Shown here one piece after another: positions 1 to 23,986 of a stretch of 25,922 bases of DNA. The notes beneath the pieces were generated by a model. The model worked only from the letters and a program-made list of their open reading frames with translations. It was not told the DNA's origin and did no database searches. The stretch covers positions 1 through 25,922 of the IMG/VR virus record IMGVR_UViG_3300032282_004584; one strand, 5' to 3'. The position numbers were made by a program, and so were the translations under genes. Source of the stretch: a virus. Taxonomy: Duplodnaviria > Caudoviricetes. How positions within the stretch are numbered: position 1 is the stretch's first letter; each line of letters opens with the position of its first letter.

Positions 1-3000
1 ACTTCATATTGTTCTCCATCTACATCAACAGTAAAATACTTTTGGTTACCTGAAGCAAAAAATACATCTTTAACGTCTATAACTTTTAAGTCTTTTCCAT
101 ATAAATTACTTAAAGAAGCCATATAAGGCATGTCTTTAGCTATTTTTATTACATTTCCAACATTACCTCCAGTTTCCATTTTTGAAAACATTTCTTTAGA
201 TATTTTTTTTAATTCCATATTTAAGTCTTCTAACCAAAAGTCTCTATCACTTCGTAATTTATCTAAAGTTTTATTATGGTTTTCAAATATTTCATTGTAT
301 TTCTTTGCGTAATCATCATAAGCTTCTTTATCTTGAGCTTTTCCACTTTTAATATAAGTCAAACCTAATTCATTAAGTTTTTCCATTCCTTCTTTTTGCT
401 CTTTATTGAACTTAGCATATTGTTCATTAAATAACTCTTCGTATTCTTTATAGATACTATTTATTTTATTAGAAACTTCTGTGTATTTTTTCCCTAAGTA
501 TTCTAATCTATCCAATTTATTTTCAAGATTACCTCCAGTTTCTTTTTTATCATTTTTAAAGCTTTCTTTTATGTTATGGATTTCTGCCATCAACAAAGAT
601 TTATCTCTGTCTGTTGAATATTCTTTTCCGTCAAAAGTTATAAATCCTTTCTCTATATCTTCTAAAATATGTTCAAACTTTAATTCTTGTGGCTGTGAAT
701 TTTCAAATCTTGTAACTCTTTTAACTAATACTCCATCTTTTGTATAGCCTTCAATTTTCATAATATAACTAGAAGGTTTTTCTGTTATAGTATTTCCTTT
801 GGCTAAATAATATAAATTTTCCATTATTTTTGGTTTTTCAATTGTTTCTAATTTTGTATAATATTTTGGGTCTTCTTTTAAATGTTCTTTTGCTATGCTT
901 TTTGCAGATTGTTCTGGAGTAATTTGACGTTGGTATAACTTTTCTGCTGTTCCAATATGTTCTTTTTCTGCTTCTATTCCTTTTTTAAGTTCTCCACCTA
1001 ATTCCATTATTTGCTCATCAAAAGTAACAACATTGTTTATATCGTCGTAGTTGTTTACTCTTATTTTATTTTCTTTAATATATTCTTTTACGTTATTATA
1101 GTCTTCTTCATTTGGAAATTTATAAACTGACCTAATCACGCTTGATATATCTTTACCATTAAAATCATTTAAAAAATCAAAATGATATTTTCCAGTTTTT
1201 TGTACGTAATCTCTTCCACCTATGGCTACATTTTGTATTTGTTTACTTACTAAATCTTTCGACTCAAAATTTAAACTACCATCTGCGTTTTTAGTTACAG
1301 CATAATATAAAGTTTTGGTTTTATCTCCTATTATTTCTACTCTATCTAAATCTTTATCTACTTCAAACATTACTTTAGCCGCGTCTTTAGCTTTTTCTAT
1401 TCCATTTACTTTATCAAATAAAGAATGGTACATTACATCAACATTTGGAGTTTTTATAAGTCCATGTATGCTAAAATAAATATCTGCTTTGTTTATATTT
1501 CCACCTGTTTGCATTTGTATTAAATGTTGTTTGTTATTACCTATCTCAAAAGATGCTTCACCTAAAGCAAGTTCTTTCACTCTATTTAAAAAATTATTAT
1601 ATCTTACATTTCTATCTTCAAAACTACCTTTGCCATAATCTTCTATATTTTCTACATAATCTAATCCTCTTAGCTTTTTACTAATTAGTATTATTGAATT
1701 TATCCAATCTACAGATATTGAAGTTCCATCTTTTAATTCAAATTCTGTTAACCCATTTTGATTTGGTTTATTTTTTTGTTGCCATTTTTTAAATTCAATT
1801 TCTCCTCCAAATTCCATTTTAGTAACTCCAAGTTCAGCAAGTTTTTTGTTAAATTTATCAATTTCTTTTTGCTCTCTTTTTATCATGTTTTCATATTGAG
1901 TATAATTGGCATTGAAAGTTCTCCAAGATTTAATCAAATAATCTTTATATTCTTTTTGACTTTGTAAATATTTTTCTTTGCTGTAATCAAAGTTTTTATT
2001 TGCTCCTCTTTCAACTATTGTTTCCCAAGAAGTATCATTTGTTCTCCACGAATCTGGTTTATCTTCTCTTGATAATTTTTCTACTTCTAAATTTGAAAGT
2101 TTTGAATTTTCTTTTGCTTCATTAAGTTTAACTTCATATTTAGCAATAGCATTTTTAGCATAAGAAATTTGCTCTTGAATTTTTTGAGCTTTAGTCATTT
2201 TTTTATACTGCTCATTTAATTTTTCATATTCTGGATTACTCTTTTTATTAGGTAAAGTAGTATGAACTATGTATCTTAAATGCAGTTTTTGAATATTGTA
2301 ACCTCCAGCTATTATAACTTCTGTTGAAAAATAATATTCTTTTTCTTCTCTAACTATTATACATGAAATTGTTATAGAACCTTGTTGTTTTGAGAATTTT
2401 AAATCTTTTATTGAATCTGTTTTTTCTAAATAATTTCCTATTGCTTTAGTTAAGTCCATTACAAGCATAAATTGATACATTTCAATATCCCAATCCGATA
2501 GCTTTATTTTTCCTTCTTCATTTATTGCTTTAATCCATTTTTCAGTTAATTCATCTTGATAAGGCTTTACTTTTTCTAAAATTATATTTAAAGGTGAGTT
2601 TTGAATTGGTCCTCCTAAATCCATTTTTAATTCTTTAGCATCAATTTTTGCTGCTTTACCTCCCATAACTGCACTATATACTCTACCCATACCCCATTGT
2701 TCTTCAGATTTTACTGTTGGTCTTACGCTTTGTGGGTTTGTATTATATGCTCCTACTCCTTTGTTATAAATTTGTTGAAGTCCTTTTTTAGAAACTTTAG
2801 TATCTTTTGCTATTTCTTTTAAATCATGGCTTTCATTTTTATCATAGCCATATTTTTTATTATATTTTTGTTTGTAAGTTACTGGACCACCTTCTTTTTT
2901 CTTACTATACTTTTTATCGATTTCTTTTTGGATTAAGTCTTTCATATATGGCCAACCTTTGTCACTTTTATCTACCCATTTAAGCATTGCTACTGTTCCA

Positions 3001-3665
3001 GCAATTCTAAAATCTTTATGGTGACGAGCAACATAGCTTCTCCATTTTTTATACATCCATTCTTCATTATCTGTCCAATATCCACGTTTTAAAACTCTTT
3101 CTAAATTTTTAAAAGCTTCGTTGCCAAAAATGTTGCCTCCCATATCCCAAACTTTAGGATATTTTTGTTTAACCATTTTAGCAAAATTATATATTTTTTT
3201 ACTTGGCAAATGGTTTGGGTTAAATTCTATTTTACCACCTCCAGCAAATTCTTCTGGGTCTTCATCTACTCCAACATCACTTCCATGAATAGGTACTCCA
3301 TTTCCAGCGCTTTGATTTATTTTACTTAATTCTTTCCAATGTTTTTGAGAAGCTTCTTTATTTACAACAAACTCATCTCCTTCAACTTCAATTTTTTTAC
3401 CTCCATCTACTTCAACTGGTATTCCACCTAATGAATTTCCATTTTTATCGTAGTGAGGTTTACCTTTTAAAAGTCCACCATCAGTTCCATCAGTTGTTAC
3501 TCCTTGTTTTGGAGAATCTAAGCCGTCATTGTTAATATCAATAAGTTTATCTAAATTTTGTTTAGTAGCTTTTTTGTTAATAATAACTTGGCCAGCTTCC
3601 ATTTTTGTAGGGTTATTTTTATTTCCTACTATTATAGATGTTTTTTTATGTTTCCAACCTGCCAT
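1..3665 (-). CDS. Large multidomain (polyvalent/polyprotein-like) protein, >1,220 aa, 3' end runs off the window
   Basis: Hand translation from ATG at 3665 (MAGWKHKKTSIIVGNKNNPTKMEAGQVIINK...) stays open to base 1, with frame checked at several points. It is absent from the ORF track because it has no stop in the window. It contains a GGLLKGKPH..GGIPV..IEVEGDEFVVNK module, a DUF5824-like segment (LQQIYNKGVGAY..RP..EQWGMGRVYS), a DUF5661-like segment (GIEAEKEH..IAKEHLKEDPKYYTKL) and 8 xxxGGx[ILV] linkers. Confidence 0.88.
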   Translation of the reverse strand, partial: MAGWKHKKTSIIVGNKNNPTKMEAGQVIINKKATKQNLDKLIDINNDGLDSPKQGVTTDGTDGGLLKGKPHYDKNGNSLGGIPVEVDGGKKIEVEGDEFVVNKEASQKHWKELSKINQSAGNGVPIHGSDVGVDEDPEEFAGGGKIEFNPNHLPSKKIYNFAKMVKQKYPKVWDMGGNIFGNEAFKNLERVLKRGYWTDNEEWMYKKWRSYVARHHKDFRIAGTVAMLKWVDKSDKGWPYMKDLIQKEIDKKYSKKKEGGPVTYKQKYNKKYGYDKNESHDLKEIAKDTKVSKKGLQQIYNKGVGAYNTNPQSVRPTVKSEEQWGMGRVYSAVMGGKAAKIDAKELKMDLGGPIQNSPLNIILEKVKPYQDELTEKWIKAINEEGKIKLSDWDIEMYQFMLVMDLTKAIGNYLEKTDSIKDLKFSKQQGSITISCIIVREEKEYYFSTEVIIAGGYNIQKLHLRYIVHTTLPNKKSNPEYEKLNEQYKKMTKAQKIQEQISYAKNAIAKYEVKLNEAKENSKLSNLEVEKLSREDKPDSWRTNDTSWETIVERGANKNFDYSKEKYLQSQKEYKDYLIKSWRTFNANYTQYENMIKREQKEIDKFNKKLAELGVTKMEFGGEIEFKKWQQKNKPNQNGLTEFELKDGTSISVDWINSIILISKKLRGLDYVENIEDYGKGSFEDRNVRYNNFLNRVKELALGEASFEIGNNKQHLIQMQTGGNINKADIYFSIHGLIKTPNVDVMYHSLFDKVNGIEKAKDAAKVMFEVDKDLDRVEIIGDKTKTLYYAVTKNADGSLNFESKDLVSKQIQNVAIGGRDYVQKTGKYHFDFLNDFNGKDISSVIRSVYKFPNEEDYNNVKEYIKENKIRVNNYDDINNVVTFDEQIMELGGELKKGIEAEKEHIGTAEKLYQRQITPEQSAKSIAKEHLKEDPKYYTKLETIEKPKIMENLYYLAKGNTITEKPSSYIMKIEGYTKDGVLVKRVTRFENSQPQELKFEHILEDIEKGFITFDGKEYSTDRDKSLLMAEIHNIKESFKNDKKETGGNLENKLDRLEYLGKKYTEVSNKINSIYKEYEELFNEQYAKFNKEQKEGMEKLNELGLTYIKSGKAQDKEAYDDYAKKYNEIFENHNKTLDKLRSDRDFWLEDLNMELKKISKEMFSKMETGGNVGNVIKIAKDMPYMASLSNLYGKDLKVIDVKDVFFASGNQKYFTVDVDGEQYE

Positions 3666-3666
3666 T

Positions 3667-4512
3667 TTAAAGTCCTCCTATTGTATAAATAAATTCTTTA
3701 GTAGTTCCACCTTTTTCATAACGAATATCTGGGTTACTACTGTCAAAAGTCGTGTTTGTGCCATCTGCGAGTTTTATATTAGTAAATTTACCATCTTTAT
3801 TTGGAAATACTAAATATGTAGTTCCTATGTAATCTTGACTTTGATATTTATACAATTCAGAAGATTCGCTCAACTCAACAATATTTTCTGCTTTCACTCC
3901 ATCAACTTTTTCAACTACTTTTTTTCTTCCAAAATTATCCCATCCAACATAACCTTCAGTTAAAAAATTCATAGCTTCACGACCTGTTTTAATATCATAT
4001 CCTGCATCGACTTTTAAGTTTTGATATGCTTCTATGCCCGACATACCTTTTCCATCAAATGTTACAATCTTTCTTAAATTTAAAAATGCTTCATAAACAC
4101 GACCATACTTCATTAAATATAATTCTTTAGTTAATTTATCATATTCAATGTTATTTCTAACCTTACTTATTTTATCTTCAAGATTTTTTATTTTATTTTT
4201 CCACTCCTCTGTTTTATCAATTTGTTTTCTTTGATAAACTTTTGGAATGTTTTTATTAGTTGTAAAATAAACCCCATACTCTTTTAATCCACTTGACTTA
4301 ACAAGATTTTCATTAAGTAAAAATTCAGTAATTATTCCATTCGGACTTCCATGAAATACAACTAAAGGCTCTCCATTGTCATCAACGACTTTACTTGCAT
4401 TTTTAGGGTCATTTTCCCAATCCCCAAACCAATTTTTAAAAGCAGAAGTGCGAACTAATTTATATTGTTCGGCAGTCAAGTTGCTTGGTTTTCCATTAGG
4501 TGCTAAATTCAT
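3667..4512 (-). CDS. ART-PolyVal-like ADP-ribosyltransferase-fold protein with C-terminal FxYxIGGL tag
   Basis: Motifs FKNWFGDW..SKVVDDNGEPLVVFHGS, GVYFT, VYEAFLNLRK, DGV and YLVF..NIKLADGTNTTFDSSNPDIRY match the ART-PolyVal domain of phage/plasmid polyvalent proteins. Confidence 0.72.
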   Translation of the reverse strand: MNLAPNGKPSNLTAEQYKLVRTSAFKNWFGDWENDPKNASKVVDDNGEPLVVFHGSPNGIITEFLLNENLVKSSGLKEYGVYFTTNKNIPKVYQRKQIDKTEEWKNKIKNLEDKISKVRNNIEYDKLTKELYLMKYGRVYEAFLNLRKIVTFDGKGMSGIEAYQNLKVDAGYDIKTGREAMNFLTEGYVGWDNFGRKKVVEKVDGVKAENIVELSESSELYKYQSQDYIGTTYLVFPNKDGKFTNIKLADGTNTTFDSSNPDIRYEKGGTTKEFIYTIGGL

Positions 4513-4832
4513 AAACCTCCTATCTGGTATTCAAATTTTGATGAAATTTCACCTCCATCTTTCATTACTTTATTTTTAATTATTTCTGTTTCAACAATTA
4601 TAAAATTTTTTTTAAAATCATTTCCAAATTTTACCTCTTCAAAATCCTTTAATAATTTTTCTTTTGAATTTGAAAATTTAACGTAATTAGTATAAATTCC
4701 TTGATTATCTAATAAACAATATTTATATTCTCCGACTTTACTAAATTTTTGATTTTTAGAATTAGTAGCAATAGAAAAATAATCTGACTTATTTCTCTTT
4801 TTTATTGTATTTGGTTTAACTAATCTGCCCAT
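4509..4832 (-). CDS. Hypothetical protein with C-terminal MKDGG...FEYQIGGL tag
   Basis: 107-aa ORF with ATGA overlap to the next gene. It shares its C-terminal motif with both neighbours. Confidence 0.8.
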   Translation of the reverse strand: MGRLVKPNTIKKRNKSDYFSIATNSKNQKFSKVGEYKYCLLDNQGIYTNYVKFSNSKEKLLKDFEEVKFGNDFKKNFIIVETEIIKNKVMKDGGEISSKFEYQIGGL

Positions 4833-4834
4833 TT

Positions 4835-5563
4835 TTATAGCCCTCCTATTGCATATTCAAAGTTTTTAATAATTCCACCACTATTATAAGTATCTTTATT
4901 AGATAAGTTTATTATGTTGGCGTTTTCTATATAGTTAATTTCAAGTTCTGGTATTAAGTAATGTTTTTTCAAAGTTCCTTTACCGTGTCCTATTTTTTCT
5001 GCTATACTTTTTAATGTTTCACTAAATATTTTTTTTCTATCTTTTTCTTCTTTTGGTAAATCTTTAGCTTCTAATTTTTTTATAATCCAATTATTAGCTG
5101 AATAACCTCTAATGTCTTTTGCTGTAATATTAAATTCACTTAAATATCTATTAACTCTATCATTAGAAATTTTAAATCCATTAGAAGTTACAAATACATC
5201 ATTTGAATTATTATTTTTTATTACTTCTTTTAAAGCTTTTGCTATTTTAGCGTCACTAAAACTTTTTTCTTGTTCAACCCCAGATTTACCAACATATTTT
5301 AAAGTAATATTATTACCATTTATTTTAATGTGTCTCTTTTTTAATCCTGTAACTCCATAATGACCATTTTCTGCTGAGTTATTATTTCCTACTCTTTCTC
5401 CTGTTTTATCCATAATAGAAATAACAAGAGCCGTCAATTTATCTTTCTCATTCTTACTATTCAAATCTCTAGTAAGATTTAACCTTAATTTTCTTAAATT
5501 ATTCGCAAGAGTTTCGATGTGGTTCTTTTTCTTTTCCCATCTATTTGCAATTTCTTGTTCCAA
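4835..5563 (-). CDS. DNA topoisomerase IB catalytic-core protein with C-terminal FxYxIGGL tag
   Basis: The TopIB catalytic pentad is present in order: R (TGERVGN), K (YVGKSG), R (TAKDIRG), H and Y (IGHGKGTLKKHY). The H-to-Y spacing of 9 matches vaccinia H265/Y274. It also has a YGVTGL motif and a TTG start. Confidence 0.85.
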   Translation of the reverse strand: MEQEIANRWEKKKNHIETLANNLRKLRLNLTRDLNSKNEKDKLTALVISIMDKTGERVGNNNSAENGHYGVTGLKKRHIKINGNNITLKYVGKSGVEQEKSFSDAKIAKALKEVIKNNNSNDVFVTSNGFKISNDRVNRYLSEFNITAKDIRGYSANNWIIKKLEAKDLPKEEKDRKKIFSETLKSIAEKIGHGKGTLKKHYLIPELEINYIENANIINLSNKDTYNSGGIIKNFEYAIGGL

Positions 5564-11398: not shown

Positions 11399-11782
11399 TT
11401 ATTTGTTTTTATTGGTTATTTTATAATACATCTTTACAGAAGATTTTGGGTAAAACTTAAATCCATTTTTTTTGTAAAATAAAACTGCTTTATCATAATC
11501 TTGCTTGGTAAAAAATTTGCTATGAATATATTTGTCTGTTGGTAAGTATAATTGAATTTCTGCAAATCCTTTAGTTTTTGCTATTGATTTTGCTTTATCA
11601 ATCAATTTACTTGCTTGACCTTTCCTTTGTTCATTTTTATCAGTACCTATATTTTGAATTTTAAAATAATACCCAATACAATAATCTAAAATCATTGTGC
11701 TTCCATTTAATTCATAATTAAGTAAGTAGCAATTTTTATTTAAGTAAATATATTTAGTTGTATTTTTTAAAATAATTTTCAT
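11399..11782 (-). CDS. GNAT family acetyltransferase
   Basis: QRKGQASKLI (acetyl-CoA binding motif A) and AVLFYKKNGF (motif B). Confidence 0.75.
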   Translation of the reverse strand: MKIILKNTTKYIYLNKNCYLLNYELNGSTMILDYCIGYYFKIQNIGTDKNEQRKGQASKLIDKAKSIAKTKGFAEIQLYLPTDKYIHSKFFTKQDYDKAVLFYKKNGFKFYPKSSVKMYYKITNKNK

Positions 11783-11783
11783 A

Positions 11784-12230
11784 TTATTTTTTATTATTGG
11801 TTAGTTTATAAATTCCAAGTTCGGTGTGTTTTTTGCTCACTTCAATCAAATATTTTTTCTTGACAATGAATAATTTAGTTGTTTTGTCGCAAGGTCTTTT
11901 TAACGCTTCAAAAATATTTGTATCAAACCAATCTGAACTTCCCGTATTAAACAAAATAACCTCATCTTTTTCTGGAGTTTCTATTAGTGCCAATTTATCA
12001 TCAATAAATTTATAATAATCTTTTACCATTTGAATTAAAATATTTGTGTTTTTTGGCTTTGATAAATATTCAGATATATTACCATCATTTTTAAGCAAAG
12101 TAATTTTATAGTCATATTTCTTTATTTTTGGCAAATTTATTTTTATTTGATTAAACACTTCCAAAATAAATTGTATATCTATTGTTTGTGTGTTTTCTTT
12201 CTTATCTTCAAAAATTAAAGTGTAGTTCAT
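11784..12230 (-). CDS. Hypothetical protein (array member)
   Basis: 148-aa ORF flanked by repeats, ending LTNNKK. Confidence 0.7.
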   Translation of the reverse strand: MNYTLIFEDKKENTQTIDIQFILEVFNQIKINLPKIKKYDYKITLLKNDGNISEYLSKPKNTNILIQMVKDYYKFIDDKLALIETPEKDEVILFNTGSSDWFDTNIFEALKRPCDKTTKLFIVKKKYLIEVSKKHTELGIYKLTNNKK

Positions 12231-12242
12231 ACTTATTTGTTT

Positions 12243-12521
12243 TTATGGGTTAGTATATTCAGCGTTTCTTCTCATAAATTCGTCTATAAATTCGTCTGCC
12301 AATTTTCCAAACTCCCTTGTGAATATGGGTATTTGCAATTCAGCACCATATTGATTTTTGCTACACAAAAAAACAACTTCTTTTCCATTTAAAAAAACCT
12401 CTTGGTCTTTCGAGAGTGGTATAATTGGTGTTTTGCTTATTGTTCTAATGTACGCTTTTGGGTTAAAGATTTCAATTTCTCTGCCAAAAACATTTATTGA
12501 GTACTCTCTTTTATTTTCCAT
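12243..12521 (-). CDS. Hypothetical protein (array member)
   Basis: 92-aa ORF flanked by repeats. Confidence 0.7.
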   Translation of the reverse strand: MENKREYSINVFGREIEIFNPKAYIRTISKTPIIPLSKDQEVFLNGKEVVFLCSKNQYGAELQIPIFTREFGKLADEFIDEFMRRNAEYTNP

Positions 12522-12540
12522 ACTTATTTGTTTTTATTGG

Positions 12541-12729
12541 TTAGTAATGTATGCCTTGTAGCTTTATATCGGTTATTTTCCCATAACTTTTAATTCCTAA
12601 TTCTTTCGCTATGGATAATGCTTTTTGGTCGTTTTCTGCAAAAAAAGAAAAACAAGTCATTGAGTTTTTAGGAGTTTCTCCTATTTCTTTTATTTCAATA
12701 CTGCCAAGTATTTCAATGTATATTTCCAT
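12541..12729 (-). CDS. Hypothetical protein (array member)
   Basis: 62-aa ORF whose stop is the first TAA of the repeat. Confidence 0.65.
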   Translation of the reverse strand: MEIYIEILGSIEIKEIGETPKNSMTCFSFFAENDQKALSIAKELGIKSYGKITDIKLQGIHY

Positions 12730-12731
12730 AA

Positions 12732-12926
12732 TTATTTGTTTTTATTGGTTATTAAAAAATTATTCATTATGTAATCTAATTGTTCATGCCAAACTTTTGT
12801 ATATTTTGTTCTTTCTAAATAATCCATTATTTCAAGTGCGTTAGCAACTTGTGTTTTGTGGTTTTCAAAATACGCTTTTCTTTCAGTATCAGACATTATG
12901 CTTATTGGACTAATTTTTTCTTCCAT
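12732..12926 (-). CDS. Hypothetical protein (array member)
   Basis: 64-aa ORF ending ITNKNK, which is encoded by the repeat. Confidence 0.65.
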   Translation of the reverse strand: MEEKISPISIMSDTERKAYFENHKTQVANALEIMDYLERTKYTKVWHEQLDYIMNNFLITNKNK

Positions 12927-12928
12927 AC

Positions 12929-13108
12929 TTATTTGTTATTATATTTTTTAAATTTCCAAACTCCTATAAGTCTTGGGTAATCTTCTTCTTTAATAGCTAA
13001 ACCGCACTTATGATAATCCGATTTAAACCACGCTCTCATCATTTCAATAGGTGCAGTAGAAACAAATTGTAGTCCATGTTTATACTTATAATGATAGTAA
13101 GCGTTCAT
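12929..13108 (-). CDS. Hypothetical protein (array member), 59 aa
   Basis: Hand translation MNAYYHYKYKHGLQFVSTAPIEMMRAWF...KKYNNK. It is preceded by the repeat. Confidence 0.65.
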   Translation of the reverse strand: MNAYYHYKYKHGLQFVSTAPIEMMRAWFKSDYHKCGLAIKEEDYPRLIGVWKFKKYNNK

Positions 13109-13110
13109 AC

Positions 13111-13272
13111 TTATTTGTTTTTATTGGTTAATACTTTTTGTTCTGCCATTTTTATTATTTCATCAATAACAAAAACTTGACTTCGCGTTAAATTAGGATT
13201 ATAACTTGCATTATTATCTGGAACAATTTGTTTTAATTCTTCTATAAATTCTTCTAAAATTTTTGTTTCCAT
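13111..13272 (-). CDS. Hypothetical protein (array member), 53 aa
   Basis: Hand translation METKILEEFIEELKQIVP...KVLTNKNK. It is flanked by repeats. Confidence 0.65.
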   Translation of the reverse strand: METKILEEFIEELKQIVPDNNASYNPNLTRSQVFVIDEIIKMAEQKVLTNKNK

Positions 13273-13370
13273 ATTTATTTTTTTTTATTGGTTAGTTATT
13301 TTATATTTGTAATCTCTTAACAAACGCTATTATTATAGCATAAAATAGGCTCATTTTTAATGGGTCTTTT

Positions 13371-13544
13371 TTATTTGTTTTTATTGGTTAGTATTTTTAA
13401 ATATTGAGACCTTTTGTCCATATTTAATATCCATTCCATAAGTTTTATTTCTGCTAAAAGTATTTCTTTATCTTTACCGTGACGATACTGTAAAATGCTA
13501 TTTAATTGATTTAGCTTAAGTTTTAATGCTCTTTCAGTTCTCAT
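13371..13544 (-). CDS. Hypothetical protein, 57 aa
   Basis: Hand translation MRTERALKLKLNQLNSILQYRHG...KILTNKNK. It ends in the repeat. Confidence 0.6.
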   Translation of the reverse strand: MRTERALKLKLNQLNSILQYRHGKDKEILLAEIKLMEWILNMDKRSQYLKILTNKNK

Positions 13545-17193: not shown

Positions 17194-17789
17194 ATACCTA
17201 AAATTTTGTTATTAGACTTTATTTTATTTTCCGCTTGTTTAGGCATTTGTTTTACTTGATTTGGCAACCAATAAATAAAATGTTTTACGCAATCATTATG
17301 GTTAGTATACTTTTTTTCAATAGCTTTTTGCTCTAAAATAAATGAATCTATAAACGCTAACACATCTTCTTTTTTTATTTTATGTTTCATTTGTGCTATT
17401 TCAAATACTCTAGAATTTTGCTTTAAATCTTTCTCAAAATGTTCTATTCCATTAAAACTGAAACCAGCTACATATTCTACTGGGTTAACTTTTTCAAGTT
17501 GTGTTCTATCTATATGTTTACCCCAAACATTATTAAAAGTTATAGACTTAATTCCTATACTAATTAGTCCAGCTTTATGAAGCTCTTGCATTAAAGTTTT
17601 ATACTTTTCATAGTCTTTAAAATCTTCTTCGAATAATTCAAAAGCTACCGCATTAGATACTGTAGCTGATTTGTCTTTAAAATAATGCATTAAACAATTT
17701 ATGTATAACATTTTAGCTCTAGAACTAATTTTACGTTCAGCGTTTTCAAATATTTTACTAATAGTATATAAATTTAGAATTTTAAGCAT
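17190..17789 (-). CDS. Putative replication initiator-like protein
   Basis: It lies directly upstream of dnaB with ATGA coupling and has a wHTH-like N-terminal part and a KHFIYWL C-terminal part. The function is inferred from context. Confidence 0.4.
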   Translation of the reverse strand: MLKILNLYTISKIFENAERKISSRAKMLYINCLMHYFKDKSATVSNAVAFELFEEDFKDYEKYKTLMQELHKAGLISIGIKSITFNNVWGKHIDRTQLEKVNPVEYVAGFSFNGIEHFEKDLKQNSRVFEIAQMKHKIKKEDVLAFIDSFILEQKAIEKKYTNHNDCVKHFIYWLPNQVKQMPKQAENKIKSNNKILGI

Positions 17790-18409
17790 AAGTGTTTGTT
17801 ATATAAATGTAAATTATTAGCAAAATGATAATACCAACCTACTTCAATATCTAATTCTTTAGCTAACTTTTCTTGTAATTTACTAAAACAATATTGGTCA
17901 TTGCAAAATCCAAACCATAAATCATTGCTTCTCATTACTACACTCATGTTAAGCTTATTTTCAAAAATATTAAAGTTAATAGCTAAAGTACATGGAGTAT
18001 CATTGTTAAAACTATCCCATTCTTTTCCATCGTAAATAGTTATTACTGCTCTTCTCGATTCTGGATTTTTTTTCAATTCTTTAATAATATAATCTAATTG
18101 TTCATTTCTACTCCATTGCCAACCATAATTAGAATTTACTATATCATCTCCAATATGCATTTTATCCCAAATTTTAGCTTTTGTTTTAATTTCTTTAACG
18201 CTTCTATTTTTTGATAAATACCATTGCCATTCATATTCAGCATATTCTTTTTTCCAAGTTCTAAAGTTTACTTTTATTTCATTATCTAAAGGATTTTCTA
18301 TATAAAAACCTTCATTAAATAAACATTTAGTGTCTTGAACATCACATCCATTATCTCTAATATAAAGATAATAATGAAGAAATGCTTCGTTTGCGTTTTT
18401 AAATCTCAT
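17774..18409 (-). CDS. Thymidylate synthase-superfamily enzyme, dCMP hydroxymethylase-type
   Basis: NSNYG, SRRAVITI, DTPCT (catalytic Cys), MRSNDLWFGFCND and NLHLY. It has Asp at the base-specificity position, as in T4 gp42 (RSNDVVFGFRND), rather than the Asn of ThyA. Confidence 0.8.
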   Translation of the reverse strand: MRFKNANEAFLHYYLYIRDNGCDVQDTKCLFNEGFYIENPLDNEIKVNFRTWKKEYAEYEWQWYLSKNRSVKEIKTKAKIWDKMHIGDDIVNSNYGWQWSRNEQLDYIIKELKKNPESRRAVITIYDGKEWDSFNNDTPCTLAINFNIFENKLNMSVVMRSNDLWFGFCNDQYCFSKLQEKLAKELDIEVGWYYHFANNLHLYNKHLCLKF

Positions 18410-18672
18410 ATTTTTATTGATGTTTGATAGTACACTACTACTGGATTAGATTTTTTATAGTCAACAATACTCTTTTTAAAGTTTTTATCACTTTTTTCTT
18501 TTATTACTATTCCATCTAATACATCTCCAACTTTACAACCTAAAGCTTTATTAGGTCCTTCATGCCAACGGTACTCTTTTCCTTCATTATCATATAAATA
18601 ATAAGTAACAATTAAAGATTCTGTGTGTGGTCCTTTATAAGGCCTTGATATACTTTTACATGTCAATAACAT
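18406..18672 (-). CDS. Hypothetical protein
   Basis: ORF track gives 18406..18702 (TTG). The ATG at 18672, just after the upstream stop, is preferred. Confidence 0.6.
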   Translation of the reverse strand: MLLTCKSISRPYKGPHTESLIVTYYLYDNEGKEYRWHEGPNKALGCKVGDVLDGIVIKEKSDKNFKKSIVDYKKSNPVVVYYQTSIKI

Positions 18673-18674
18673 AA

Positions 18675-19103
18675 CTAATAATTTATTTTGATTAAACCCC
18701 AAAAAATTGATATTGTTTTTTTATTATTTTCTTTTTCTCCAAGAAAACGTGTTTGCTTTAATAATGGTTCTTTTATTTCTTCTTTTTTAACTACTTCTTT
18801 TTTTACATTTTTTTTATTTGGTTTTTTTCTATTCATTACTTGAGTTGTGTTTTTTAACTCAATTACTTTTCTAGCGTGTATTGGTTCTATCTTATCTACA
18901 TTAACTTTAAAAAGGCCTACATTTGTTTTTTCTACTATTTTTGTTTTTAATACTCCATCAACACAGGTCCAAGATATTCTATTTTTCCTAGCTATCTCAA
19001 ACATTTCTTTAAAAATTACTTTTCCATTTTTAGACTTAATTAAGTCAACTATCTCTTGAATAGCTATTTGATATTTGTCAATTGTTACTTTTCTTGTTTT
19101 CAT
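18675..19103 (-). CDS. Hypothetical basic protein
   Basis: Start at 19103 (MKTRKV), right after the MazG stop, is preferred. The C-terminus is ISIFWGLIKINY. Confidence 0.65.
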   Translation of the reverse strand: MKTRKVTIDKYQIAIQEIVDLIKSKNGKVIFKEMFEIARKNRISWTCVDGVLKTKIVEKTNVGLFKVNVDKIEPIHARKVIELKNTTQVMNRKKPNKKNVKKEVVKKEEIKEPLLKQTRFLGEKENNKKTISIFWGLIKINY

Positions 19104-19104
19104 A

Positions 19105-19431
19105 TTATTTGTCTTTAACGAATGTTCCATTAACCATTTTACCTGTTCTTTTTGAAATTACTTTATAAGCGCTTTTTATACAATCTTCAATATCTAATCC
19201 TTCTAAAGCTGCTAAATTTGTTAATACTACTACGCAATCTCCTATAGCATCAATTAACTCTTCTCTATCTTTTTTAAGAATAGACTTTGCTAATTCTCCA
19301 GTTTCTTCTTGTAGTTTAATAAATTGGGTTTTAGAATCTCCTTTTTCATAGATTCCTCTTTGCTTTGCCCATTCTCTAATTGATTCAAATTCATTTCCGA
19401 ATTTTAACTTTTCTTTTTTTTCTTTTTTCAT
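19105..19431 (-). CDS. MazG-like nucleotide pyrophosphohydrolase
   Basis: IREWAKQRGI, KLQEETGELA, DAIGDCVVVL and AYKVISKRTGKMVNGTFVK. Confidence 0.88.
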   Translation of the reverse strand: MKKEKKEKLKFGNEFESIREWAKQRGIYEKGDSKTQFIKLQEETGELAKSILKKDREELIDAIGDCVVVLTNLAALEGLDIEDCIKSAYKVISKRTGKMVNGTFVKDK

Positions 19432-19433
19432 AT

Positions 19434-19598
19434 TTATTTTTGTTTAATAATTTCTTTTAATTCTACTGGATATTTGAATCCATCATTTGGTTTAAAAACA
19501 TATAATGTCAAGTTACCATAAGTAGTTTTTATTTCTATTAGTTCACCTTCTAATACGCTTCCTGCAAATTTAAAGTAGTATGTTGCTCCTATTTCCAT
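19434..19598 (-). CDS. Hypothetical protein, 54 aa
   Basis: Hand translation MEIGATYYFKFAGSVLEGELIEIK...DGFKYPVELKEIIKQK. It follows promoter copy 2 directly. Confidence 0.65.
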   Translation of the reverse strand: MEIGATYYFKFAGSVLEGELIEIKTTYGNLTLYVFKPNDGFKYPVELKEIIKQK

Positions 19599-19599
19599 A

Positions 19600-19657
19600 T
19601 TGCAAATATAATTAAATGTTACAAATGTATAACTATAAGTTATTAACGTTTGATTGT
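19600..19657 (-). promoter_or_regulatory. Duplicated promoter element, copy 2
   Basis: 30-bp identity with 14629-14658 and partial similarity for a further ~28 bp. It contains two TAnnTTTG boxes. Confidence 0.8.
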
Positions 19658-20826
19658 TAAAATAATTTTAATTGACTAATTTCTTCGTTATTATCTAATC
19701 CTTCTTTACTTATTGGAGCGCTGGCTCTTCTTAAAGCCATATTTTTATTATTTTTTAATCTTAAATAAACAGAAAATTGACAACAACTTATCTCTACGCC
19801 AAAAGTAGTAAACCTTCCTATTTCTGTTATTTCATTTAAAACATTTAAACTTTCTCCTTTAAAATTAAAAAACTCATTTTGATTATCTCTAATTGCTTGA
19901 ATAACTTTAGCTCCTACTTTTGTAGAGATGCTTATACCTAAGTCTTTATAAAACCAATTTATAGTAGACATTGCTCCTACTCCTGGCGCAACAAAGTCAT
20001 CATCTTCATCTAAATTACCAAATTTATTAGTTGAATTTTTTAATAATAACTCAGTTCCTATTTCTGGCATCCTAGCTAAATTAGTGCTAAAATGATATCC
20101 GTAATAGTTTCCAATTCCTCTTATAGATGTTAAAAAATCAAATGATTGTTCCATTGAAGGTTTAGATTTGTAAAATTCTACAAATTTTGGTCCTAAATAA
20201 GTAAACCAATAAACTATATCACTAGCTCTACCTTTTCTTTGATTATTAAAATTTGATTTAATAAAGTCATCATAAGGAGTATTTATTTCTCTACAATAGT
20301 TTCTAGATTCTGTTTGTAAACTTGTACGTAATTCAGTTGTGCCGTATATTTTAGTATTTTGTTTTCTAGCATTTTCTAAATTCACCATACATTTTTGGAC
20401 ATAATTATAGTCATTAACTAATGAATTATATTTTATAAAAGGACTATCTGTATCTTTAGTTATTAAACTTATAGTATTTGATGGTCCATAAAATTTAACA
20501 ATAGCTGCGTTTATTAGCTTATCTTCAAAAGTACAATCAGGATTATAAAACACATTATTGTTTAGCCAAATAATTTCATCGTGAAAAGACCTATTAGGAT
20601 GGAAATATGGTACAGATTTATTATCTACTATAAATCCATATCCAAATTTATTTTCTTCATTCTCTAAATGTTTAAAAGTATCAAAATTACATTTTTTTTG
20701 AAATCTAACTTCATATTCTCTACGATTCATTTCATGAACAAAATCTCTTATAAGTTCTTTTTTTTCATTTGGAATTAACTCAATAATTTTTTTTGAATCT
20801 AATTCCATTAAGTTTTTATTGCTCAT
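19657..20826 (-). CDS. aGPT-Pplase1-like / amino acid:DNA transferase-like DNA hypermodification enzyme (HhH-glycosylase-like fold), divergent
   Basis: Ordered motifs FHPNRSFHD, LTSIRGIGNYYGYHFSTNL, FVAPGVGA and VEISCCQFSVY parallel the family's F.N..R..D, G.G.F.AY....DL, GPGA and IE..LCE..KY. Confidence 0.6.
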   Translation of the reverse strand: MSNKNLMELDSKKIIELIPNEKKELIRDFVHEMNRREYEVRFQKKCNFDTFKHLENEENKFGYGFIVDNKSVPYFHPNRSFHDEIIWLNNNVFYNPDCTFEDKLINAAIVKFYGPSNTISLITKDTDSPFIKYNSLVNDYNYVQKCMVNLENARKQNTKIYGTTELRTSLQTESRNYCREINTPYDDFIKSNFNNQRKGRASDIVYWFTYLGPKFVEFYKSKPSMEQSFDFLTSIRGIGNYYGYHFSTNLARMPEIGTELLLKNSTNKFGNLDEDDDFVAPGVGAMSTINWFYKDLGISISTKVGAKVIQAIRDNQNEFFNFKGESLNVLNEITEIGRFTTFGVEISCCQFSVYLRLKNNKNMALRRASAPISKEGLDNNEEISQLKLF

Positions 20827-20831
20827 ATTTA

Positions 20832-21527
20832 TTATTTTTTAAAAAAACAATCATAACCACATATTTGGTTAACGTAAATAATTAGTGGCTCAACTTTATA
20901 ATTTTTATATTTAGACTTAAATAATTCAATTGTTTTTTCCATTTTTTCTTTTTTACCGTGAAATTCAATAAATAAAGTTTCTGGAAAATAATCTAACAAA
21001 TCTTCTATAAAAGTGTATTCTGCAGATTCAATATCTATTTTTATTATATCTGGATTTATTTTATTTATTAAATATTTGAAATTTACATTTGGAACTTCGT
21101 CATATTCTCCAAATCTCATTTTACTAATTATAGAAGTAGAGCAATGTTTATTTCCACTAGAAGATTTATATATTTTTATTTTTTCTTCTTCTAATCCACT
21201 TACAGCTCCAAAAATTAACTCTACTTGACTTTCGTTTTCAAAAGTTTTTGATATTTTTTCAAAATTTCTTTTATCACATTCTACAGAATAAACTTTTTTT
21301 GCTTCAGAGTCTAAAGCTATTTGAGTAAAAGCTCCAATGTTACAACCTAAGTCTAAACAAATTTTATTCTTATAGTCTACTTCTTTTAGCAAATAATTAT
21401 TTATGCTTTGGTCGATCATTTTTTTATCTACTTGCTCTTCAGCTTTTAAAATTTCGACGTATTTTTTCTTTAAACTTCTTTTATCTTCTTTTGATATAGG
21501 TAAATTTGGCAATTTTATTCTTTCCAT
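20832..21527 (-). CDS. FkbM-like SAM-dependent methyltransferase
   Basis: CLDLGCNIGAF, VYSVEC, GAV, IIKIDIESAEY and FIEFH. Confidence 0.8.
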   Translation of the reverse strand: MERIKLPNLPISKEDKRSLKKKYVEILKAEEQVDKKMIDQSINNYLLKEVDYKNKICLDLGCNIGAFTQIALDSEAKKVYSVECDKRNFEKISKTFENESQVELIFGAVSGLEEEKIKIYKSSSGNKHCSTSIISKMRFGEYDEVPNVNFKYLINKINPDIIKIDIESAEYTFIEDLLDYFPETLFIEFHGKKEKMEKTIELFKSKYKNYKVEPLIIYVNQICGYDCFFKK

Positions 21528-21907
21528 TATTTTTGTATTAAATTTGAAACAATATGAACTATCTCTAAATCAGGATGGTTTTTTTGAATTATGTCTTTTT
21601 GCAATTCATCATCTTCAAAAAACCTAACTACATTTAACCCTCTAGATTTTAATTCTTCAATTTTTTTAGCTTTATGTAATGCCGAATAAGTTCTCGCTTG
21701 TTCAGTATGGTTACCTCTTTGTTCTAAAGTCATTGGATTAAAATATACTTTATTAGATATTTTTCTTTTTCTAAGTTGATTTAATATTAAATTTTTTTCG
21801 TCAATGCATCTTCCAGTTATAATAACATCTTCTTTACTCATTGGGTTAATACCTATAGAAATAACTCCATCAAAATCGTAACCATATATGTAATCTATTC
21901 CGTTCAT
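21527..21907 (-). CDS. Minimal (capless) HAD-superfamily phosphatase
   Basis: YDFDGVI (motif I), ITGR (II), HK (III) and FFEDD (IV). Confidence 0.8.
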   Translation of the reverse strand: MNGIDYIYGYDFDGVISIGINPMSKEDVIITGRCIDEKNLILNQLRKRKISNKVYFNPMTLEQRGNHTEQARTYSALHKAKKIEELKSRGLNVVRFFEDDELQKDIIQKNHPDLEIVHIVSNLIQK

Positions 21908-23082
21908 TATATTATTTGTTTTTTAGTTGTTTCTGTTAATTTTCTTTTTGCTAAAGCTTCGCATTCATTTAAAGCTTCTGAAAACATCATTTGTTTTGGT
22001 GGTGTTTTTTGAGTAAATGCTGATGGTCCTCTTAAAGCTCCAACTATACCCATTTCTCTTGCTACTTGTAAATATCTAATAGCGTCAATAACTACTCCAG
22101 CAGAATTTGGAGAATCTTGAACAGATAATTGAGCATCTAAAATTACTGGTGAACCACCAAATCCTTCTAATTCTAATCTAAAATTAGCTACTTTATTATC
22201 TCCATAATAAGATATATACTCAGAAGGACCAGCATGTAAAAAAGAATCTTCAGTAGAAATTCCACGAATATCATTTTGCGCTCTAATTACATTTTCTTTT
22301 GAAATCTTTTTAGACTTTAATCTTGATTTGTCTTCCATATTTAAAAAATCTGTATTTCCTCCAACATTTCTTTGGATATGGCATTTAACATTATGTCCTC
22401 TTTCAAAAGCTAATTCTTGAAGCATTTGTGATAAAATCGAAGCTCCAAACTGAGAACGCATATCATCTCCTATTAGTGGTATTCCAGCATCAATAAATCT
22501 TTTTTCCCATGCTAAATCAGAAGCTATAAATACTGGTATACAGTTAACAAATGAAATTTTAGTTTCTAAACAAATTTCTGCCCAAAATTCTGTTGCTTTT
22601 TGAGAACCTACTGGCAAATAATTGATTAAAATTTCAACTTCATGATGTTTTAATTGTGAAATAATTTTTTCTTTCCATTCTTTAGCTTTTTTATCTGTCC
22701 AATTTGTTCTGTTCATTTCTGTAGAATTTCTTAATTCTTCAGAAACTAAAAATCTATTACTTTCTGGATAACCATCCATTAATAATGCATAACCATCAAT
22801 TACTGGAGCAGAATAAACTGGTGATTGATTTTTTATTTCTTTTACTATATCCCAAGCACAGTTTGGTCTTTGTTTTAATGCTTTTCCTAAAGGTAAATCG
22901 ATTTTGCGTTCATCAATATCAAAAGCGCAAACAAATTCTATATTTTCTGCTTTATAACCTCCAATGTCTTGTCTCATAATTCCATTAGATACTTGATTGT
23001 TTTCGCTGTAAAATTGTACTCCTTCTACTAACGATTTAGCGCAATTTCCAGCGCCAATAATTGCTACTTTGATTTTTTTCAT
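21907..23082 (-). CDS. ino1: Myo-inositol-1(3)-phosphate synthase, bacterial/archaeal type
   Basis: IIGAGNCAKSLVEG, NYLPVGS, FVNCIPVFIA, GDDMRSQFGAS, NVGGNTDFLNM, RLKSKKISK, GPSEY..DNK and DSPNSAGVVIDAIR. Confidence 0.95.
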   Translation of the reverse strand: MKKIKVAIIGAGNCAKSLVEGVQFYSENNQVSNGIMRQDIGGYKAENIEFVCAFDIDERKIDLPLGKALKQRPNCAWDIVKEIKNQSPVYSAPVIDGYALLMDGYPESNRFLVSEELRNSTEMNRTNWTDKKAKEWKEKIISQLKHHEVEILINYLPVGSQKATEFWAEICLETKISFVNCIPVFIASDLAWEKRFIDAGIPLIGDDMRSQFGASILSQMLQELAFERGHNVKCHIQRNVGGNTDFLNMEDKSRLKSKKISKENVIRAQNDIRGISTEDSFLHAGPSEYISYYGDNKVANFRLELEGFGGSPVILDAQLSVQDSPNSAGVVIDAIRYLQVAREMGIVGALRGPSAFTQKTPPKQMMFSEALNECEALAKRKLTETTKKQII

Positions 23083-23086
23083 GTTT

Positions 23087-23986
23087 TTAAAAATTAAATA
23101 AGTTAAATTGTTTTTTGTTTTCTTTCATATAGTATTTAGGTCTAATATGCACTGATTGTTTTGGTTCCATAATATCAAATTTAAGATTTCCTTTTTCATC
23201 AACAAAATAATCTGGCCAAGTTAAAAAGTCAATACCACTTTCTAACATTACTTCATTTGCTACTCTTCTTAGTTCTTTTCTTAATTCAATATCTCCAAAA
23301 AATGGTTTGCCTTTATATAATCCTGATTTTGGAATTTTTCTGCTTTCATCTTCAATAGGTAATAACTGCACTATACTACAATTATATTTTGAAGCGTATT
23401 CGCAGTATCTATTAAATAAATCTTTAGTAGCTTCTAATGGGTTAACTTGTCTAGCTAAATGAAATCTAATATCAATATTGCCAAAATACATTATAATATG
23501 TTTGTAAGTTGATAAATCTAAATTCATTTTTAAAAATCCATGTAAAGTTTTACCATCATTTCTTGATATTGCATAAGATTCGTCTGGCCAAACTGATATA
23601 CTATGAGAATCTCCAATAACTAAATTTTCTCTTTCTGGCAAATTTATCAATTCTATATTTAAGTAGTCATTAAAAGTTTCTAACTTTCTTTTAACAGAAA
23701 AATCGTTTAATTGAAAACCATCTAATGAATAAACTTTACCATTATATTCAGTTAACTTTTTAGCTCTAACAATTATATCATCACTTAAGCCTCCAATTAT
23801 GTTAAAAGAACCAATTTTAAAATTTGGACCGTGATAAATGATAAGTCTATCGTAATTGTTCCAATTTTCGTTTTCAGTAATTATTTCAGCATTAAATAAC
23901 TTTGAAATAATATTTACCATGCCTGCAGAATGTGAATTTTCTGATTTTGCTGGATTATTTATTATGCCTATTATTGCTGTTTTCAT
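23087..23986 (-). CDS. Protein with C-terminal SGNH/GDSL-like acyl-hydrolase/transferase domain
   Basis: LVIGDSHS (block I), YFGNID (block III-like) and QSVH (block V-like). The N-terminal domain is unassigned. Confidence 0.5.
   Translation of the reverse strand: MKTAIIGIINNPAKSENSHSAGMVNIISKLFNAEIITENENWNNYDRLIIYHGPNFKIGSFNIIGGLSDDIIVRAKKLTEYNGKVYSLDGFQLNDFSVKRKLETFNDYLNIELINLPERENLVIGDSHSISVWPDESYAISRNDGKTLHGFLKMNLDLSTYKHIIMYFGNIDIRFHLARQVNPLEATKDLFNRYCEYASKYNCSIVQLLPIEDESRKIPKSGLYKGKPFFGDIELRKELRRVANEVMLESGIDFLTWPDYFVDEKGNLKFDIMEPKQSVHIRPKYYMKENKKQFNLFNF

Follow-up and report, generated by a model that had tools for sequence, protein, structure and literature searches.

A conserved C-terminal peptide on unrelated proteins of an uncultured virus family: a candidate address label for particle cargo

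How viruses choose the enzymes that they carry in their particles is understood in very few cases, among which the signal of phage T4 is the classic one. The capsid-targeting sequence of the T4 internal proteins IPII and IPIII is a short N-terminal peptide that loads even GFP and is trimmed by gp21 at maturation (PMC9958956). In African swine fever virus (ASFV), polyproteins pp220 and pp62 are cut at Gly-Gly-X by the protease pS273R and are docked by a myristate together with the membrane protein pEP84R (PMC10308890, PMC9910796). Maturation cuts are described also for tape measure proteins: pb2 of phage T5 is cut after R1127 (PMC10038345), while gpH of phage lambda is cut by an enzyme not identified at an unmapped site in its glycine-rich C-terminal region, giving a product, gpH*, estimated at ~710 residues (PMC12617516). 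Lastly, polyvalent proteins of phage type combine ART-PolyVal with other domains in multi-module chains, for which packaging and injection have been proposed (Iyer et al. 2017, PMC5512222). Here we analyze a C-terminal peptide, which we call the tag, that closes three adjacent genes of the uncultured virus record IMGVR_UViG_3300032282_004584; the window is this complete record of 25,922 bases, with ~26% GC. The tag consists of a linker, [YFM]xxGG, a spacer of four or five residues and a hydrophobic tail that finishes on Y-x-[IV]-G-G-L (the IGGL class).

Like the T4 capsid-targeting sequence, the tag is a short terminal peptide common to unrelated proteins (94 genes with 32 groups of bodies), for which an internal location in the particle is presumed. 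Unlike the T4 signal, which is N-terminal, of ~10 amino acids and from a tailed phage, it is C-terminal and hydrophobic, stands on dozens of unrelated bodies, is swapped between virus clades and is known from genes alone. With ASFV our locus shares polyproteins marked by Gly-Gly, and the combination of a terminal anchor with a viral membrane receptor is the model that we propose; however, ASFV is a eukaryotic virus with an N-terminal lipid anchor, in which an enzyme of the SUMO-protease family cuts after the second Gly, whereas here we find a conserved HExxH protease and predict a cut before xxGG. No SUMO-family protease of ASFV type was matched in five incomplete records of relatives. The tape measures of T5 and lambda have xxGG at or near the cut region, and the giant open reading frame (ORF) that adjoins the tagged genes starts with a tape-measure-like module; but pb2 and gpH are tail proteins, for which the accessible texts describe one mapped cut and no terminal address tail. 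Shuffled multi-domain proteins with ART-PolyVal, helicase and NUDIX-type modules are found here as they are among polyvalent proteins, which as described differ from ours in the xxGG linker, the terminal tag and the context of a jelly-roll virus. The tag thus resembles the T4 and ASFV systems in its working and belongs to neither. In the literature searched, which included few subscription papers and no supplements (those on polyvalent proteins could bear on the matter), there is no description of the tag, of the tail swap or of the virus group, and the one literal match to the tag word came from a paper on a human phosphatase.

The tag in the window and in related genomes

The tagged genes and the adjacent giant ORF have the following features:

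4835..5563, minus strand: tagged gene 1, catalytic core of topoisomerase IB (TopIB), 242 amino acids, TTG start (Pfam PF01028 Topoisom_I, E 6e-26)
4835..4888, minus strand: end of gene 1, with linker YNSGG, spacer of four residues, tail FEYAIGGL and stop
4509..4832, minus strand: tagged gene 2, protein of 107 amino acids and no known family
4509..4565, minus strand: end of gene 2, with linker MKDGG, spacer of five residues, tail FEYQIGGL and stop, overlapping the next start (ATGA)
3667..4512, minus strand: tagged gene 3, ART-PolyVal protein of 281 amino acids, activity predicted (PF18760, E 6e-9)
3667..3720, minus strand: end of gene 3, with linker YEKGG, spacer of four residues, tail FIYTIGGL and stop
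3..3665, minus strand: giant polyprotein of at least 1221 amino acids, open at the window end, with modules split by [MFY]xxGG linkers at amino acids 140, 348, 617, 718, 887 and 1163
3234..3500, minus strand: N-terminal module of the giant ORF, which is the opening module of the first polyprotein in each of the two tag clades

The three endings read as they did in the original prediction, which had been made from the letters of the window, and the synonymous variation that it noticed among them was borne out when the codons were checked. The bodies in front of the tags are indeed unrelated by Pfam, being Topoisom_I, no family and ART-PolyVal. In the TopIB core, R57, K93, R152, H193 and Y202, which we take to be the catalytic pentad, show no variation across the 32 aligned homologs; the 107-residue protein has no match in Pfam or PHROG, and its body has no homolog among the fetched loci. 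Judged by composition, Y-x-[IV]-G-G-L would arise by chance with a probability of ~2.4e-6 per ORF end, and it is present on three adjacent genes. The linker motif also divides the giant ORF, as predicted, with six copies of [MFY]xxGG in 1221 amino acids versus one in the 6452 amino acids of the window's other untagged ORFs.

Among homologs of the TopIB protein the strict tag is terminal in 23 of 120, query included, and ends in GGF in two more, with YxxGG after the core kept in many homologs that go on differently; ART-PolyVal homologs end in Yx[IV]GGL in 61 of 120 cases. A tag scan of metagenomes gave 79 stretches in 77 loci, of which 64, having a tagged ORF of at least 50 amino acids, were kept, while 13 were dropped before the census; 12 of the latter look like chance matches, and the other, L075, belongs to the family but has a short ORF. 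Together with the window and three viral loci, the 64 loci provide 667 distinct complete gene ends, 573 of them untagged and 94 ending in Yx[IV]GGL, so that the search of related genomes extends the terminal tag to 94 distinct genes. The last residue is L in all 94 tags and the fourth-last is I in 90 and V in four, with codons that vary synonymously. For 32 tags the scan pattern played no part in the discovery; of these, 13 have F and nine have W at position -8, and 28 have the upstream GG. Of the pattern first proposed, the core Y-x-[IV]-G-G-L-stop is invariant, whereas the F is often W, Y or C and four of these 32 lack the upstream GG. Grouped on any region in common, the tagged bodies make 32 groups, and grouped on the module that precedes the tag, 71; two to five tags occur together in 23 of 59 records.

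The terminal position was recovered also by a blind profile of 20 tails containing no end signal, a type of search that biases residue identity and not position. It found 304 representatives at E<=1e-3, and among the best 150 of these, 129 of 131 full tags lie at the exact C-terminus and the other two a few residues short of it, on bodies that link up into 12 groups, of which two are large. A single internal copy of the tag occurs in the 128,119 residues of the loci. Scans of viral contigs with the TopIB protein alone or with two narrow tag patterns gave no matches, and a scan with a loose pattern gave 32 stretches, of which only one (L014) is a family member. For the seven loci found with a TopIB profile, the tag was present in none of the four records searched; L033 encodes a related polyprotein and the others resemble other viruses.

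By a simple hydropathy rule, a membrane helix is predicted for none of the 94 tagged genes and for 217 of the 573 untagged ones, and none of the 79 replication-side ORFs in the window and in its relative G001 is tagged. Tagged genes precede the polyprotein or sit between particle genes, at positions that differ among genomes. Pfam matches were found in 12 of the 70 tagged proteins scanned, all with ART-PolyVal, leaving 58 without a match. One contig from a lake run has the tag of the window and the start of its giant ORF, and then another body, ending in YANGG by eye; this single contig gives a hint that bodies may be exchanged at the tag.

Other endings occupy the same place. Among the 120 ART-PolyVal homologs, a different short ending comes after the linker in 33, often a hydrophobic tail (the types include PDYLKMFLGK, PDYLKFLIG, WGWFGIKF, SFLNW and WYKGLF), while 17 run into a further domain and nine are without the linker. 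Scanning for PDYLxMFLGK led to four viral records with 11 tails of the form PDYLxMFL(GK/DL/GF) and no IGGL tags, carried by the two or three genes that immediately precede the first polyprotein, in synteny with the window; no record has tails of both classes. The jelly-roll protein and the HExxH protease are present in all four records in strongly diverged form, and the protease tree agrees with the tag classes, nine IGGL rows grouping at 93/89 and the four sister rows at 100/100. The Wimley-White sum of the last nine residues averages +1.3 for IGGL tails, +0.5 to +5.1 for the other tails and -2.2 for untagged soluble proteins. The IGGL tail is amphipathic as a strand and the PDYL tail as a helix, and one tail class is transmembrane-like in appearance.

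A caveat of the original prediction was that the tag codons also spell AGGAGG, a Shine-Dalgarno (SD) sequence, ahead of each next gene. AGGAGG is present in all three window tags, lying 9 nucleotides upstream of the next ATG in gene 1 and 8 nucleotides ahead of the ATG of the giant ORF in gene 3 (the spacing can be read at window positions 4830-4850 and 3663-3680), versus no SD-like 4-mer in the 33 other window genes. In the census, 25 of 31 tags with the next ATG 6-10 nucleotides away have AGGAGG, against 19 of 63 other tags; collapsed by downstream gene, the figures are 18 of 23 at SD distance and 17 of 52 elsewhere (p 4e-4). Given this enrichment at a spacing of 6-10 nucleotides, the synonymous codons appear to be tuned to AGGAGG where spacing allows, and since the enrichment lies exactly at SD spacing, though only 24 of 495 other genes of the loci carry an SD-like 4-mer, it suggests that the host ribosome is able to use SD pairing. 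The caveat therefore holds for the choice of codons, which spell AGGAGG mainly at SD distance from the next start, but not for the peptide: 63 of the 94 tagged genes have no start at that distance, and 44 of these 63 keep the peptide without AGGAGG. In the sister clade, none of the 11 tails has AGGAGG. Among the non-tag matches listed for the DNA motif, those of the three tighter patterns are all in-frame IGG, none standing alone, and third codon positions of the tags are richer in A than the background. We also considered, and rejected, that tag DNA had recently been copied within genomes, for two tags from one record resemble each other at synonymous sites no more (likeness 0.517) than two from different records (0.485). 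The tag is genuine and selected as a peptide, with residues conserved well beyond the genes where SD spacing could account for them.

Linkers, the predicted cut and the virus family

The linker, with consensus K-[YFM]-[AK]-x-G-G-x-[IVTL], occurs 5.5 times per 1000 amino acids in tagged bodies versus ~1 elsewhere, and its density, logo and position relative to Pfam domains place the Gly-Gly linkers at module junctions. In the giant ORF, the Pfam domains DUF5824 (250-341) and DUF5661 (893-944) lie between or just after linkers, and several polyproteins terminate a few residues past one. The start of the giant ORF is 66% identical to that of the polyprotein in G001, which credibly matches 9 of the window's 42 called ORFs and carries two IGGL tags. 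This N-terminal module is common to both clades, though diverged between them, and resembles the C-terminal module of the tape measure of Elizabethkingia phage TCUEAP1, a siphophage of Bacteroidota (tblastn E 0.04; profile E 4e-6 at Z=1000), in which KFARGG comes after the shared module. In G002, a genome with inverted terminal repeats, a polyprotein of 1673 amino acids (L033:9566-14584) joins the N-terminal module, TopIB, ART-PolyVal and NUDIX, so that domains which are separate tagged proteins in the window stand here in a single chain. A MoxR-like AAA+ ATPase is found inside the polyprotein module at L118:3714-6625, with equivalents in G006, G007, G009 and G013, and its partner DUF7192 is seen in G001 and G006.

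The T5 tape measure offers the only mapped cut at a motif of this kind, and its sequence has AEGG directly after R1127, so that the cut precedes xxGG. Because the linker matches this site, its own cut is likely to fall before xxGG, which would leave no di-Gly end and free a tail of ~16 residues; the clipping at GG of the original prediction finds no support. Lambda gpH (L154:43-2604) has FATGG at 733, YATGG at 778 and MRDGG at 842, and cutting after F733 would set free 120 residues, close to the reported 14 kDa. Related motifs occur outside the polyproteins. In the capsid candidate described below, an A-x-G motif lies between the acidic N-terminal region and the jelly-roll domain in both clades, and [FY]x[NS]AxG occurs 59 times in 36,961 amino acids of membrane proteins versus twice in 26,939 amino acids of tagged proteins. 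The form [FY]x[NS]A[DEN]G sits in C-terminally anchored membrane proteins, for example at L014:1561-3353 and L098:5322-7260, and is possibly a site of the same protease as the linkers.

As the sole recognizable conserved protease of the family, the HExxH protein is our candidate for the enzyme that cuts the linkers. All 12 sequences compared keep its residues H187, E188, H191 and E205, and its model, with a predicted local distance difference test (pLDDT) score of 88.7, has a beta sandwich and a zincin-like domain that aligns to BepA of Escherichia coli (Z 7.6, root mean square deviation [rmsd] 4.8, 117 residues aligned). Foldseek gave no PDB match at E<=1e-3 for this protein or for the capsid candidate, rows from a viral library were driven by disorder, a sequence search of the PDB for the protease gave nothing useful, and the predicted complex of protease and tail scored 0.01. 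The families ThiF, Ulp1, adenain and JAB were matched in none of five relative records, which are incomplete, and the adenain control matched nowhere. Residues 710-754 of a polyprotein at L112:6639-10004 match Prok-JAB weakly (E 0.002, below the cut-off).

The window is likely to derive from an uncultured bacterial virus of lake water. Parts of it are contained in four lake-water studies, no RNA data set being among those listed as containing them, and its record has no particle genes, for which we turn to the relatives. Since these encode a protein of jelly-roll fold, a HerA-like ATPase, many membrane proteins and the HExxH protease, the family is probably one of tailless, membrane-containing viruses. 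A Walker A protein (HerA central domain E 9e-4, below the cut-off) is present in each of the five long records, together with two paralogous beta proteins, the HExxH protein and several membrane proteins. The capsid candidate is modeled as an eight-stranded sandwich and has among its best fold matches a chain of PR772 (Z 6.2, rmsd 5.0, 104 residues aligned), the capsid protein of FLiP (Z 5.8, rmsd 3.5, 101 aligned) and capsid chains of STIV and giant viruses, at Z ~6 and tied with non-viral proteins; a paralog matches at a probability of 82%. A search of 50,697 phage records gave no match to the candidate; among 33 longer proteins chosen from G013, a record that is probably incomplete, none has a head or tail PHROG as a match at 1e-5. 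The hosts are probably Bacteroidota, to which four of the seven genome bins with the capsid candidate belong (misbinning is possible), and gene starts of the family are rich in A and without SD, as is typical of that phylum.

The role of the tail

What does such a tail do? The explanation to which we lean, with moderate confidence, is that it constitutes a removable address label for particle cargo, which would dock soluble proteins in the assembling particle until a cut in the linker frees them. Its observed basis is the terminal position of the tail, its invariance, its restriction to soluble proteins outside replication, the upstream linker and the tail swap in the sister clade. The hydrophobic tail, with its free carboxyl, would bind to the inner face of the nascent particle, where a virus-encoded, membrane-located protein is probably the receptor. 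A maturation protease, for which the HExxH protein is the candidate, would then cut the common linker, probably between [YFM] and x-x-G-G, splitting the polyproteins into modules and removing the tails from tagged proteins. Finally, the enzymes so released, which include the ART-like protein and the topoisomerase core, would enter the next host with the DNA. From the modular sorting tag of the original prediction this retains a terminal, modular signal at the protein level, present on soluble non-replication proteins and most likely serving particle loading; a T4-like head is improbable, for the relatives point to a tailless, membrane-containing virion.

Several observations weigh against an address label of this kind. 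Both loading and cutting are deduced for a virus that we know only by its genes; the scan pattern itself fixes 62 of the 94 census tags; and the IGGL clade has support under the starred threshold, while the capsid tree does not resolve it. Only ART-PolyVal and TopIB are common as known families among the tagged proteins and, since 58 of the 70 scanned lack a Pfam match, their status as effectors is mostly unsupported. Eight soluble ORFs with at least two linkers in tag-bearing loci are untagged, and G007, G009 and G010, whose records include the cargo region, have linkers and no common tail; the tail is therefore not required for all cargo. The model of the capsid candidate is mediocre (mean pLDDT 54), with matches at Z ~6 that tie with non-viral cellular proteins, and the Atlas assigns the clusters mostly to Uroviricota, the tailed phages. 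Moreover, the linker may be cut by a protease of the host (that of T5 is not known).

Part of this evidence would suit other explanations. Signals for tail-specific proteases and ClpXP are C-terminal and have hydrophobic ends, and the tail could likewise be a degron for a host protease, which would clear unpackaged harmful cargo or limit its life after injection, the linker cut removing the tail only in the particle. A degron would fit with the strict terminal position, the hydrophobic end, the restriction to soluble proteins and the cargo that does without a tail, but we consider it unlikely, because the tail switches between unrelated sequences with the virus clade, none of the 79 replication-side proteins has it, and its near-invariant pattern of eight residues is stricter than is usual for degrons. 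The interface-seeking character of all tail classes, one of them transmembrane-like, would be explained by a peptide that is never removed and holds enzymes permanently at a viral or host membrane, with the linker as a mere hinge; strand- and helix-amphipathic tails would also be tolerated better by a membrane than by one receptor. Yet generic membrane binding has no need of the GGL kept in 94 of 94 tags, and the linker matches a mapped cut site, a like motif flanking the pro-region of the capsid candidate, which makes this explanation slightly less probable again than a degron. Nor do we think it probable, and we rank it lower still, that the tail is a handle on some other cargo protein, for instance the module that opens the giant polyprotein, allowing piggy-back entry with no docking on the particle wall: tagged genes do directly precede the first polyprotein in both clades, and the module is shared by them in diverged form, but the surroundings of many tagged genes are genes for membrane proteins, with neighbors that vary, and the module is found also in records without tags.

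Two further possibilities have very little probability. In one, already marked as speculative in the original prediction, removal of the last Leu would expose a di-Gly for ubiquitin-like conjugation of the cargo. YxIGG is similar to SUMO-type ends, the ART protein of one relative terminates exactly at FKTGG and the weak Prok-JAB match could be counted in favor; however, the sister tails end in FLGK, FLDL, FLNW or GIKF, without di-Gly, the T5 analogy places the cut before GG and, in the five incomplete records, no enzyme of the four families sought was matched, although E1 (ThiF) and JAB enzymes could come from the host; the proposal is unsupported. In the other, equally improbable, the motif would be a nucleic-acid element, either a ribosome-binding site or a copied junction cassette, with the peptide as by-product. 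The enrichment of AGGAGG at SD distance and the A-rich third codon positions agree with such an element, but not the tags that keep the peptide without AGGAGG away from that distance, the in-frame IGG in the listed non-tag matches of the tighter patterns, the synonymous sites, no more alike within records than between them, or the sister tails devoid of AGGAGG; as the sole cause, it is largely refuted.

Side features of the window and wider meaning

Besides the tag, the window has a second common ending at 11399-13544 on the minus strand, where four small ORFs end in [IL]TNKNK and a fifth in LTNNKK; similar ends occur in L101 and G001, and this ending may be a repeated DNA junction element rather than a peptide. 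The stretch 17774-23986, also on the minus strand, includes a gene with the 5-hmdU DNA kinase helical domain (PF18723), whose neighbors resemble, by eye, what are presumably a thymidylate synthase, a MazG and an inositol-phosphate synthase; the set suggests modified DNA bases.

The address label could be one expression of a broader system. We propose, as a tentative extension that is rather doubtful at present, a two-part code that spans a widespread family of tailless, membrane-containing viruses and joins a cut site of tape-measure type to a clade-specific tail, read by a receptor that co-evolves with it. If such a code were real, any module could be recruited as injected cargo by gaining ~16 residues, and the cut of lambda gpH would be expected after F733. 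The common linker in itself provides a concrete prediction for the unmapped cut in the lambda protein. For a family that has no isolate in the phage collection searched, the tag allows cargo genes to be listed from the sequence, and a portable, clade-specific C-terminal label, accompanied by a candidate protease and a predicted cut, would constitute a direct handle on the way in which these viruses choose their cargo.

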